From Escherichia coli (GTDB taxonomy: Bacteria > Pseudomonadota > Gammaproteobacteria > Enterobacterales > Enterobacteriaceae), in assembly GCF_041886205.1 (NCBI RefSeq), contig NZ_CP169029.1: a stretch of DNA of 64,000 nt, one strand, 5' to 3'. Under the pieces are notes generated by a model that saw nothing but the letters and a program-made list of their open reading frames with translations, was not told where the DNA came from and did no database searches. Position numbers and translations under genes: made by a program. Positions 58,986 through 64,000 of this stretch are shown here, in pieces (the first letter of the stretch is position 1; the number at the start of each line of letters is the position of its first letter).

Positions 58986-59297
58986 ATGACTCAAGACTAT
59001 GAACTGGTTGTGAAAGGAGTCCGTAATTTTGAGAATAAAGTTACGGTAACTGTAGCCTTACAGGACAAAGAACGCTTTGACGGTGAAATTTTTGGCCTGG
59101 ATGTCGCCATGGACCGTGTTGAAGGAGCTGCGCTGGAGTTTTATGAGGCAGCAGCCAGAATGAGCGTCCGGCAAGTCTTCCTGGAAGTAGCAGAAAAATT
59201 GTCAGAAAAAGTTGAGTCTTATCTGCAGCATCAGTACTCCTTTAAGATTGAAAATCCTGACAATAAGCACGAGCGTCCTCATCATAAATATCTATGA
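58986..59297 (+). CDS. YdfR-like hypothetical protein located between holin and endolysin
   Basis: 103-aa ORF; same position and size as ydfR in K-12 Qin (recalled). Confidence 0.55.
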   Translation: MTQDYELVVKGVRNFENKVTVTVALQDKERFDGEIFGLDVAMDRVEGAALEFYEAAARMSVRQVFLEVAEKLSEKVESYLQHQYSFKIENPDNKHERPHHKYL

Positions 59298-59823
59298 ACA
59301 CAAAAATCAGATACGGCCTGTCGGCTGCCGTTCTGGCGCTGATTGGTGCTGGCGCATCTGCTCCTCAGATACTTGACCAGTTTCTGGACGAAAAAGAAGG
59401 TAACCACACAATGGCATACCGCGATGGTTCTGGCATATGGACCATCTGTCGGGGTGCCACAGTGGTGGATGGAAAAAACGTTTTTCCCAATATGAAACTG
59501 TCGAAGGAAAAATGCGACCAGGTCAACGCCATTGAGCGTGATAAGGCGCTGGCATGGGTGGAGCGCAATATAAAAGTTCCACTGACCGAGCCACAGAAAG
59601 CCGGTATCGCGTCATTCTGTCCCTATAACATTGGCCCTGGTAAGTGTTTTCCGTCGACGTTTTATAAGCGGCTTAATGCCGGTGATCGTAAAGGCGCATG
59701 CGAGGCGATTCGCTGGTGGATAAAGGACGGTGGACGTGATTGCCGCATTCGTTCAAATAATTGTTACGGTCAGGTTATTCGTCGTGACCAGGAGAGTGCA
59801 TTAACCTGCTGGGGGATAGAACA

Positions 59824-59827
<4 letters not shown>
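59294..59827 (+). CDS. phage endolysin, GH24 lysozyme with N-terminal signal-anchor-release (SAR) segment
   Basis: 177-aa ORF; hydrophobic Gly/Ala-rich N-terminus (…LSAAVLALIGAGASA…) followed by lysozyme domain. Confidence 0.85.
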
Positions 59828-60320
<493 letters not shown>

Positions 60321-60683
60321 GGTAATATTAAATCGGAACATTTACATCGCGGAATGTAAAATTTAAATAAAAAGGACTCTTCCATGAGCCAAAATTCCTG
60401 AAATCTTAAGGGTAAGATAAAAGGTCTTAATCAGAATGACACGTTATTATTAATAAATAAAGCTATTCTTTCATTGCTGTGTTTTTCTTTACAAAAGTAA
60501 TCCTTGCTATGGGTGGTTAATCATGCGTTAATGGTGTTCTGGTTTGTTACAAATTTATCTGAAGCAGTCATTGTTATAATTTTATTATTTGTACCTCTTG
60601 AGATTTCCTTGTTGGTTTTTCTCTCTGATATTTTTTTTCGGACCATTCTGCCCAAGGGCTAATTTCTTCAAAAGGTAATAATT

Positions 60684-60896
60684 ATGTCTAACAAAATGAC
60701 TGGTTTAGTGAAATGGTTTAACCCTGAAAAAGGTTTTGGTTTCATCACGCCGAAAGATGGCAGCAAAGATGTGTTTGTCCATTTCTCAGCAATTCAGAGC
60801 AACGATTTCAAAACATTAACTGAGAATCAGGAAGTTGAATTTGGTATTGAGAACGGACCTAAAGGTCCTGCCGCTGTTCATGTAGTGGCGCTTTGA
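60684..60896 (+). CDS. cspI: cold-shock protein (CspA family), prophage-encoded
   Basis: 70-aa [41 protein letters not shown]...; preceded by a long AT-rich leader. Confidence 0.8.
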
Positions 60897-61167
60897 GGTA
60901 GACAATATTACAAACCATATTCACTTTAGATGCCCGTGTTGTCATGGTTCCCAGTATAGAACATCATCTTTTGATGTTTCTGACATGAATCCTTTCGGGG
61001 CAAAATGTATCTTTTGTAAATCAATGATGATTACATTTGATAATATTTCACAATACTTAAATGCCAGCCGTCTGTCGTTGGATTTAAAAAAGTGAAAATG
61101 AAGGCTCCTTCGGGAGTTTTTTTGCTTGGTATCTATTCGATGGATACTCACATACTACGGTAACATC

Positions 61168-61398
61168 ATGAAAAAAATCATAGTTTTTTTTAACTCTGAA
61201 CCAGCAGTGGTAGTGCCAGCGATGACTGGAGTTAACACCATCATGCGTGAATATCCAAATGGCGAAAAAACACACCTTACTGTAATGGCCGCAGGGTTTC
61301 CATCTCTGACCGGAGATCATAAAGTCATTTATGTAGCAGCGGATCGACATGTAACTTCAGAAGAAATTCTGGAAGCAGCAATGAGACTCTTGAATTGA
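61168..61398 (+). CDS. hypothetical small prophage protein
   Basis: 76-aa ORF from ATG at 61168 (MKKIIVFF...); weak RBS. Confidence 0.35.
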   Translation: MKKIIVFFNSEPAVVVPAMTGVNTIMREYPNGEKTHLTVMAAGFPSLTGDHKVIYVAADRHVTSEEILEAAMRLLN

Positions 61399-61570: not shown

Positions 61571-61744
61571 ATGAACATTGAAGAGTTAAAAACAAAAACA
61601 GAAGCAGATATTTCTGAATATATAACAAAAAAAATCATTGAGCTTAAGAAAAAGACCGGGAAAGAAGTTACCAGTATCCAGTTTACTGCACGGGAAAAAA
61701 TGACTGGTCTTGAAAGCTATGATATCAAGATTGATTTAATCTAG
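61571..61744 (+). CDS. gnsB: GnsA/GnsB-family small protein
   Basis: 57-aa product MNIEELKTKTEADISEYITKKIIELKKKTGKEV...REKMTGLESYDIKIDLI. Confidence 0.75.
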   Translation: MNIEELKTKTEADISEYITKKIIELKKKTGKEVTSIQFTAREKMTGLESYDIKIDLI

Positions 61745-62039: not shown

Positions 62040-62246
62040 ATGCATAAAGATCAATACACTGATGCCCCCTCCCAGGAGCAGGTTCGTGTAAAAACTATGC
62101 TTAATAGCACCATTTCGATGGGTTACCCGGATGTTGTAATTGCATGTATAGAACATCAAGTATCTCTGGAAGCATTCAGGGCAATTGAGGCCGCGTTAGT
62201 AAAGCACGATAAGAATACGAAGGATTATTCCCTGGTGGTTGACTGA
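62040..62246 (+). CDS. hypothetical small prophage protein
   Basis: 68-aa ORF; no recognised family. Confidence 0.3.
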
Positions 62247-62469
62247 TCACCATAACTGCTAACCATTCTGACCATTTCACAAGTGACAGAGTCAATATCG
62301 TATTCTGTCACTGTAAGGCTAATACAGTACTGCAATTCAACTACAGCAATGCCTCGTATTTAGGTGAATTTACAATATCGTCCAGTTCGGATGCCGGCTG
62401 CATTTCTGAAGATAAGGCATTTCGGTTCGCGTATTTTCCCCTCATGCTCGTCAGTCCTGCGCGTAGTAA

Positions 62470-62838
62470 GAAACACCAAACGGGACGGTTACAGTCACCA
62501 TAAGCGATGATCATAACTTTGACCGTCAAATCATTATTCCGCCCATTATCTTTAACGGAATAGCGTATAGCGATCCGGGAAGTGGTAATAACCCGGGAGG
62601 TACAAGATACACGGGTTATGGTTTTGAAGTTCGCAAAAACGGTGTATTAATCGCATCCAGAGAAACTAAAGGGGCCATTCCCGGTAGCTACAGTGCGGTT
62701 ATTGATATGCCGAGTGGCAGGGGAAGCGTCACTCTGGAGTTTAAGGTTTTCCATAAAGGCAATCAGTGGGCAGGTAATATCACCGACTGTACGGTGATTG
62801 TGACCAAAAAAGCCGCTTCCGGCATCAGTATTCGTTGA
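62470..62838 (+). pseudogene. 3' remnant of an upstream tail gene (host-specificity J-like), no start codon
   Basis: 123-codon open frame ending at TGA 62836-62838 with no in-frame start; lies immediately upstream of lom as J does in lambda. Confidence 0.4.
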
Positions 62839-62907
62839 AATTGTTATAACCCATATAAGGGCACCAGAAATGGTGCCTTTTTTATTGCAGAAAAGCGAGA
62901 GGTAATT

Positions 62908-63507
62908 ATGCGTAAACTTTATGCCGCCATTTTGTCCGCAGCCATTTGTCTGGCCGTATCCGGTGCGCCTGCATGGGCATCTGAACATCAGTCCACGCTG
63001 AGCGCGGGGTATCTTCATGCCTCGACGAACGTTCCCGGCAGCGATGATCTTAACGGGATTAACGTGAAATACCGTTATGAGTTTACGGACACACTGGGGC
63101 TGGTGACGTCATTCAGCTATGCAGGAGACAAGAATCGCCAGCTTACCCGTTACAGCGATACCCGCTGGCATGAAGATTCCGTGCGTAACCGCTGGTTCAG
63201 CGTGATGGTGGGGCCGTCTGTGCGCGTGAATGAATGGTTCAGCGCGTATGCGATGGCGGGTGTGGCTTACAGCCGTGTGTCGACTTTCTCCGGGGATTAT
63301 CTCCGCGTAACTGACAACAAGGGGAAAACGCACGACGTGCTGACCGGAAGTGATGACGGTCGCCACAGCAACACGTCTCTGGCGTGGGGAGCTGGCGTGC
63401 AGTTTAACCCGACCGAATCCGTGGCCATTGATATTGCTTATGAAGGCTCCGGCAGTGGCGACTGGCGCACTGACGGTTTCATCGTGGGTGTCGGTTATAA
63501 GTTCTGA
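62908..63507 (+). CDS. lom: Lom/Ail/OmpX-family outer membrane protein
   Basis: 199-aa ORF with signal peptide, beta-barrel features and C-terminal …GVGYKF; RBS GAGAGG. Confidence 0.85.
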
Positions 63508-63533
63508 TTAGCCAGGTAACACAGTGTTATGAC

Positions 63534-63560
63534 AGCCCGCCTGTTCAGGCGGGCTTTTTT
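63534..63560 (+). terminator. intrinsic terminator downstream of lom
   Basis: Hairpin GCCCGCC-TGTTCAG-GCGGGC followed by TTTTTT. Confidence 0.7.
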
Positions 63561-63571
63561 GTGGGGTGAAT

Positions 63572-64000
63572 ATGGCAGTAAAGATTTCAGGTGTACTGAA
63601 AGACGGCACAGGAAAACCGGTACAGAACTGCACAATCCAGCTGAAAGCAAAACGTAACAGCACCGCGGTGGTGGTGAACACGCTGGCCTCAGAAAATCCG
63701 GATGAAGCCGGGCGTTACAGCATGGACGTTGAGTACGGTCAGTACAGCGTTATTCTGTTGGTGGAAGGATTCCCGCCGTCACATGCCGGGACCATCACCG
63801 TGTATGAAGATTCCCGACCCGGTACGCTGAATGATTTTCTCGGTGCCATGACGGAGGATGATGCCCGTCCGGAGGCTCTGCGACGTTTTGAACTGATGGT
63901 GGAAGAGGTGGCGCGTAACGCGTCCGCAGTGGCACAGAACACGGCAGCCGCGAAGAAGTCAGCCAGTGATGCCAGCACATCTGCCCGTGAGGCGGCAACT
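63572..64000 (+). CDS. stf: side tail fibre protein (Stf-like), 5' partial; continues beyond window
   Basis: ATG at 63572 with RBS; 143 codons open to the window edge; N-terminus MAVKISGVLKDGTGKPVQNCTIQLKAKRNS... as in lambda Stf (recalled). Confidence 0.8.
   Translation, partial: MAVKISGVLKDGTGKPVQNCTIQLKAKRNSTAVVVNTLASENPDEAGRYSMDVEYGQYSVILLVEGFPPSHAGTITVYEDSRPGTLNDFLGAMTEDDARPEALRRFELMVEEVARNASAVAQNTAAAKKSASDASTSAREAAT

Follow-up and report, generated by a model that had tools for sequence, protein, structure and literature searches.

An ATT-initiated YmcF-like gene, ynfQ, follows cspI in a Qin-type prophage of Escherichia coli

The plus-strand frame that follows cspI in the window (the whole stretch of 64,000 nucleotides analysed here, from contig NZ_CP169029.1 of the Escherichia coli RefSeq assembly GCF_041886205.1) is ynfQ, an annotated E. 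coli prophage gene and a paralogue of ymcF. Read directly from the window sequence, the frame runs without interruption between a TAG at 60883 and its TGA at 61093-61095. Of 5426 complete E. coli genomes, 2148 are matched by a 1091-bp query over the region (100% for the best match), and the RefSeq order in the matching strains is cspI, a 189-nt CDS (ymcF or ynfQ, with the product name "cold shock small protein YmcF"), ynfR (21 aa), ynfN and gnsB. Carried over to the window, this 189-nt CDS corresponds to 60907-61095. The encoded 62-aa protein matches the Pfam family PF23641 (YmcF-like) at 109.9 bits, where the cutoff is 27, over positions 1-62 of 62 (E = 6.9e-32). A sequence-only reading of this DNA had proposed a zinc-ribbon-type small protein gene downstream of cspI, and both this full-length match and the strong three-base periodicity of variation seen in homologues bear out a real small-protein gene there. 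That reading had placed the frame at about 60928-61095; the end at 61095 holds, and the start was moved to 60907, 21 nt upstream of 60928. Taken as a whole, an account in which a known YmcF-like gene, ynfQ, has a cspI-coupled ATT start, is co-transcribed in cold shock, precedes a leaky terminator and encodes a Cys-knuckle protein is, in our judgement, very probably the best explanation of the locus. The gene and its ATT start were already known; only the link between ATT or ATC starts and placement behind a csp gene is new, and it is a modest detail. The features of the region are the following.

59294-59827, plus strand: rrrQ, lysozyme gene, in the prophage segment.
60504-60532, plus strand: putative cspI promoter, with a -35 element TTGCTA (60504-60509), a 17-nt spacer and an extended -10 element TGcGTTAAT (60524-60532).
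60539-60683, plus strand: likely 5' untranslated leader of cspI, about 145 nt, of the cold-shock thermoregulator type (Rfam RF01766; GC 0.31).
60684-60896, plus strand: cspI, 70-aa cold-shock protein (ORF; Pfam CSD, E = 1.6e-31; RefSeq annotation in the identical strain).
60895-60899, plus strand: ribosome-binding site (RBS) of ynfQ, GAGGT, lying over the cspI stop codon TGA (60894-60896), read directly.
60907-61095, plus strand: ynfQ, 62-aa YmcF-like Cys4 small protein (RefSeq CDS of the identical strain and K-12 b4724; PF23641).
60942-61151, minus strand: antisense ORF of 69 aa with a GTG start, from the mechanical ORF list, judged not to be a gene.
61098-61163, plus strand: ynfR, 21 aa, its first half encoded by the terminator hairpin (RefSeq annotation).
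61101-61123, plus strand: predicted intrinsic terminator inside the ynfR ORF, with stem AAGGCUCC, loop UUCG and stem GGAGUUUU running into a T7 tract (fold energy and conservation).
61168-61398, plus strand: ynfN, 76 aa (RefSeq annotation; phrog_3425 over positions 1-76).
61571-61744, plus strand: gnsB, after further small ORFs downstream of ynfQ.

Compared with YnfQ of the Qin prophage of K-12 MG1655 (b4724), the window gene is 100% identical in both nucleotide and protein sequence. In both genomes it lies 10 nt after cspI, has ATT as its first codon and is followed by ynfR. The neighbours differ, as ynfN encodes 51 aa in K-12 and 76 aa in the window, and rzpQ is broken in the window. YmcF (b4723), which is encoded behind cspG in the E. 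coli core genome, also has 62 aa, is 67% identical to YnfQ and has the same Cys4 pattern. Its gene resembles ynfQ in having an ATT start, a 10-nt gap, an RBS (AAGGT) over the csp stop codon and then a hairpin with a T-run. Unlike ynfQ, however, ymcF is chromosomal rather than prophage-borne, and it is overlapped by ymcE, whereas ynfR and ynfN come after ynfQ. The frame had also been suggested to be ynfN-like. This is wrong, since a BLASTP comparison of YnfN with YnfQ gave no alignment at E ≤ 100 and ynfN is a separate gene two ORFs downstream. ynfQ is listed among the uncharacterised y-ome genes (PMC11551758). The name has also been used for something else: ynfQ was first given to another ORF, a 37-aa paralogue of ynaM that is located between ydfJ and ydfK (PMC6001520, Table 1; VanOrsdel et al. 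2018). In RefSeq today it denotes b4724 behind cspI, and the clash may mislead literature searches.

The absence of a canonical start near the 5' end of the frame, already remarked on in the sequence-only reading, was confirmed. The first ATG, GTG or TTG of the plus frame is the ATG at 60985, which lies past the first Cys pair, and none occurs before residue 27. The sole near-cognate codons in the frame are the ATT triplets at 60907 and 60919. Exactly opposite the ATT at 60907 in the alignment, 34 homologues have an ATG, which fixes the start there (60907-60909, 10 nt after the cspI stop codon) and not at 60919 or farther upstream. The layout of the RBS is also shared, with T(A/G)AGG located 9-10 nt before the start in 37 csp-linked homologues. 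AUU is a rare initiation codon that is known from infC, the gene of initiation factor IF3, and is discriminated against by IF3. Both infC and ynfQ use it, although infC is the first gene translated on its message and is autoregulated, whereas the AUU of ynfQ lies 10 nt behind the stop codon of another gene. A literature search turned up no direct experimental support for the ATT start or its coupling, whether from ribosome profiling or from N-terminal data, and ymcF and ynfQ are not mentioned in the ribosome-profiling literature searched.

To compare the start codon across relatives, 80 homologous loci were collected from about 80 Enterobacteriaceae species, and 82 loci including the window and K-12 ynfQ and ymcF were analysed. 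Where a csp gene lies 9-10 nt upstream (39 loci, the window among them), the start codon is ATT in 36 cases and ATC in three, and never ATG. The 43 loci that have no intact csp gene show ATG at the aligned codon in 34 cases, ATG one to three codons away in five and no canonical start in four. A neighbour-joining tree, which is built on only 62 residues, places the state with ATG and no csp gene in five or more separate clusters. Decayed csp remnants were found upstream in Citrobacter sedlakii, Raoultella/Klebsiella and Atlantibacter, and in Atlantibacter the ATG stands directly beside the old ATT. The promoter and cold-box motif GCGTTAATG-N-GGTTT precedes 50 homologous loci at a constant spacing and has no other occurrence in 521 kb. 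Its distance upstream is 373-404 nt for most ATT/ATC copies and 177-204 nt for most stand-alone ATG copies; the shorter spacing indicates that the stand-alone ATG copies sit directly behind a cold-shock-type leader. A motif spacing of about 375-384 nt persists in five copies with a decayed csp gene (C. sedlakii, three Raoultella and one Atlantibacter). When the full cspA model was run on the leaders of the stand-alone ATG copies, none was detected, because most of the model score comes from the csp coding region; for these copies, the promoter and cold-box motif was used in place of the Rfam model.

This pattern speaks against a mutation and in favour of a non-canonical start that is selected and translationally coupled; the weak start may be maintained for translation coupled to the upstream ORF. 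The start had previously been suggested to be non-canonical or mutated; the first term fits the ATT, and the second does not, since every one of the 39 csp-linked copies has ATT or ATC at this codon. In the mechanism that we propose, ribosomes that have just come off cspI would re-initiate at the weak AUU, and this would be the main route of ynfQ translation. Such coupling would tie the output of YnfQ to the translation of CspI at a low ratio. A stronger form of the proposal is that AUU/AUC is a selected regulatory device, kept only behind csp (39 of 39) or behind a replacement mini-ORF and repeatedly swapped for AUG plus a stronger RBS when csp is lost. We advance this form tentatively, as close to an even call but short of one.

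The main competitor of translational coupling is independent initiation, in which 30S subunits would bind at the ATT on its own RBS, the weak codon would set a low level of expression, and the link to csp would reflect shared ancestry. The RBS GAGGT is at a normal spacing of 7-8 nt, as such initiation would require, and one locus (L031) retains ATT with neither a csp gene nor a convincing upstream ORF. Moreover, the association between start codon and context is partly confounded by phylogeny, because related species share states. Against independent initiation stand the lack of any ATG among the 39 csp-linked copies, the appearance of ATG in at least five separate clusters after decay or deletion of csp, and the constant stop-to-start distance of 9-10 nt. 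A further point against it comes from Citrobacter freundii M-21 (L052), in which a 10-codon ORF, MFLDFCVIAH (1449-1481 of that locus), is found in place of csp; its stop codon, within TAAGG, precedes the ATT by exactly 10 nt, which is the geometry seen behind csp genes. We therefore regard independent initiation as rather unlikely, though worth serious consideration. Two further loci that have ATT and no csp gene (L017 and L035) contain an 8-codon ORF that overlaps the ATT, which brings to three, out of four ATT copies lacking csp, those with a mini-ORF ending at the ATT or next to it. In L053 the csp stop codon is located 29 nt upstream. The mini-ORFs of L052, L017 and L035 could be due to chance.

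A different route to translation without a canonical start would be a CspI-YnfQ fusion, produced by a +1 frameshift at CUU UGA G or by read-through of the stop codon, and we consider it very unlikely. The cspI gene of the window does end in GCG CTT TGA GGT, in which CUU UGA G is the core of the prfB shift site; ynfQ is in the +1 frame relative to cspI and is open from 60886; and the C. sedlakii locus (L006) has an in-frame csp-ymcF fusion ORF. However, the slippery CUU is not conserved (the corresponding codons are CTC TAA before ymcF and GTA TAA or CGC TAA at other loci), and the frame relation itself varies, as Kosakonia has a gap of 9 nt where other loci have one of 10 nt. In addition, the ATG of stand-alone homologues is placed exactly at the position of the ATT, and the csp part of the C. 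sedlakii fusion has lost conserved aromatic residues and looks decayed. The fusion was rejected for these reasons. The C. sedlakii ORF, at 1261-1689 of its locus, is a decayed csp-like ORF joined in frame to a ymcF-like gene whose own start is ATG; the csp-like portion has W11 changed to E and FVHF changed to FVPS.

Selection on the protein was evident in the homologues, which vary mainly at third codon positions of the plus frame. In the plus frame, core entropy at codon positions 1, 2 and 3 is 0.33, 0.18 and 1.21, and pN is 0.13-0.27 against a pS of 0.6-0.95, so that the plus frame of ynfQ is under strong purifying selection. This bears on whether the frame might be a decaying pseudogene with a mutated start codon that is not translated. 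The absence of a canonical start codon and the defective state of the surrounding prophage, with rzpQ in pieces, would suit such a reading, but ATT or ATC is kept in 39 loci (Escherichia, Citrobacter, Salmonella, Kosakonia, Yokenella, Siccibacter and others), purifying selection is strong, the gene is also found in intact phages and K-12 annotates it, all of which make a pseudogene extremely unlikely. Finally, the antisense ORF at 60942-61151 that the ORF track reports on the minus strand is indeed present and is the longest canonical ORF of the interval, but its chance of being a real gene is practically nil, as 53 of 76 homologues have stop codons in its frame, the variation has the periodicity of the plus frame and a family search with its 69-aa product gave no match above noise; the comparative data already refute it as a gene and point to an artefact of ORF calling. 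Conservation of this antisense ORF among homologues, which had been named as the outcome that would speak against a ynfQ-strand gene, was thus not observed.

CspI of the window is 100% identical to K-12 CspI. The spacer before cspI is 363 bp long and has a GC content of 0.31, whereas that of the window as a whole is 0.49. A match to the Rfam cspA thermoregulator model (RF01766) spans 60538-60923 with 112.8 bits (gathering score, 78; E = 1.5e-29), and thus covers the leader and cspI coding region above the gathering score. Since this match begins at 60538 with a cspA-type promoter just upstream, the transcribed part of the spacer is likely to be only about 145 nt (60539-60683). An AT-rich leader of about 350 bp had been assigned to cspI; its cold-shock character and low GC content stand, and the model match and promoter reduce its length to about 145 nt. 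In the 1999 work of Wang and colleagues on cspI, the leader is reportedly 145 nt long. The 3' terminator that belongs to RF01766 (model positions 398-428) is absent after cspI, where ynfQ sits between the csp stop codon and the terminator. A terminator-like hairpin with a T-run was also observed on the minus strand at 60375-60390, within the rzpQ-cspI spacer, with no obvious minus-strand gene leading into it.

In the proposed mechanism, cspI and ynfQ would share one transcript from the cspI promoter, through the cspA-type leader of about 145 nt, and such shared transcription would mean that both products are made after cold shock. Published data show that cspI, ynfQ and ynfN are co-induced 6.5-, 5.9- and 5.8-fold and have a similar SspA dependence, and ynfQ is described there as cold-shock induced (PMC11228462).

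The frame had been said to end at a terminator, and this was supported by the hairpin with T7 at 61101-61123, the structure of which is conserved across genera. The hairpin has a folding energy of -12.4 kcal/mol (z = -2.1) and is followed by seven T residues, although a simple terminator scan did not flag it. In other genera (Citrobacter, Salmonella, Kosakonia, Siccibacter, Raoultella and others), most csp-linked loci have at the matching place a hairpin with a T-run whose stems are unrelated in sequence, such as GGCTCC/GGAGCC, GGCCCC/GGGGCC, CAGGTCAG/CTGACCTG and AAGCCTCGC/GCGGGGCTT. The recurrence of the hairpin with unrelated stem sequences argues for a real, conserved terminator. In E. coli, the residues APSGVF of ynfR are encoded by the stem-loop and T-run, and the ynfR ORF is not conserved outside E. 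coli. With the hairpin conserved across genera and the ORF not, ynfR looks like a young, E. coli-specific ORF that rides on the terminator. SPA-tagged YnfR has been detected, with a strong rise after cold shock (PMC6001520). We suggest that the terminator would be leaky, more so in the cold, which would let ynfR and ynfN be expressed; the rise of YnfR-SPA in the cold and the co-induction of cspI, ynfQ and ynfN fit such leakiness. Antitermination by Csp proteins is established (reviewed in PMC4956666). As for ynfN, the T-run at 61184-61191 within the gene is T8 in the window and T7 in K-12. The T7 of K-12 shifts the frame, so that the 51-aa YnfN of K-12 seems to represent an allele truncated at its N terminus; the 76-aa form is also present in Citrobacter and in phrog_3425.

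The YmcF-like family is narrow, with 42 representative clusters among 1.84 billion proteins. Its invariant core reads F-R/K-C-P-x-C-x-G-S-Q-Y-R ... N-P-x-G-A-x-C-I-F-C-K, and the window protein has this core (FRCPCCHGSQYR ... NPFGAKCIFCK) with its four Cys residues. Divergent members keep exactly C9, C12, C34 and C37, while C11 and H13 vary. An AlphaFold2 model has a mean pLDDT of 75, rising to 87-92 in the core. A Foldseek search of this fold against the PDB gave no significant match (best E-value, 0.8), the top hits being the zinc ribbons of TFIIE-alpha, eL43 and RPB12, and the fold label therefore stays qualitative. A published AlphaFold-3 model of YnfQ has rubredoxin topology (PMC13348028, 2026). 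YnfQ is predicted to fold as paired Cys knuckles, C9-x2-C12 and C34-x2-C37, in a zinc ribbon/rubredoxin-like arrangement, and it probably binds one metal ion. Zinc-ribbon and rubredoxin-like Cys4 proteins have two CxxC knuckles flanking short beta strands, as in the predicted fold of YnfQ, though the PDB matches are non-significant. A role as a nucleic-acid- or ribosome-associated helper in cold acclimation is a guess, and a doubtful one.

Searches of other family collections gave little. No NCBIfam model matched YnfQ above its cutoff; the closest, NF047912 (ECs_2282 CxxC family), was a weak match (E = 0.0023, 17.8 bits) below the cutoff of 37, and neither PHROGs nor PADLOC contains a YnfQ family. 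A likeness to the Rieske [2Fe-2S] box II (CPCHGSQY) was considered and rejected. It produced only sub-threshold PDB profile matches to the cytochrome b6f Rieske protein (E = 0.065-1), and it is coincidental, because C11 and H13 vary in divergent members; the Rieske box I (C-x-H) is absent from the YnfQ family.

Genome annotation is little affected by these results, as ynfQ is already in the K-12 RefSeq record and is called by the NCBI pipeline. They nevertheless illustrate how an ORF finder that accepts only ATG, GTG and TTG starts misses ynfQ and reports the antisense artefact instead. The contrast between csp-coupled ATT/ATC copies and stand-alone ATG copies allows selection on a non-canonical start codon to be tested, and the comparative start-codon pattern provides a definite point of entry to a cold-shock protein that is still uncharacterised. 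If the proposed coupling is correct, csp-ymcF/ynfQ would be a natural model for re-initiation-dependent non-canonical initiation, and the AUU start might act as an IF3-sensitive timer for a small, predicted metal-binding protein during cold acclimation.

With respect to its genomic setting, ynfQ belongs to the accessory genes ("morons") that lie near the lysis genes of a Qin-type lambdoid prophage. This prophage lacks its head genes and most of its tail genes and is therefore cryptic; its layout is unlike that of K-12 Qin. The rzpQ gene (spanin region, DUF2514) is broken at 59824-60320 and is represented by three RefSeq pseudogene fragments in the identical strain; it is intact (498 nt) in K-12 and in strain E308. 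Past gnsB, at about 62040-64000 of the window as read from the annotation of locus L001, the prophage continues with a truncated tail-tip gene followed by lom and a tail-fibre gene. The ynfQ gene was also found in nine phage records, and intact lambdoid phages such as Tritos and 2H10 carry the block S-ydfR-R-Rz-cspI-ynfQ-ynfN-gnsB. It is unannotated in 2H10 and in most of the other phage records that carry it, and phage annotation systematically misses genes with ATT starts; records with an unannotated ynfQ homologue include LR595862.1, NC_049950.1, PV340562.1, PV340573.1 and LR597641.1.
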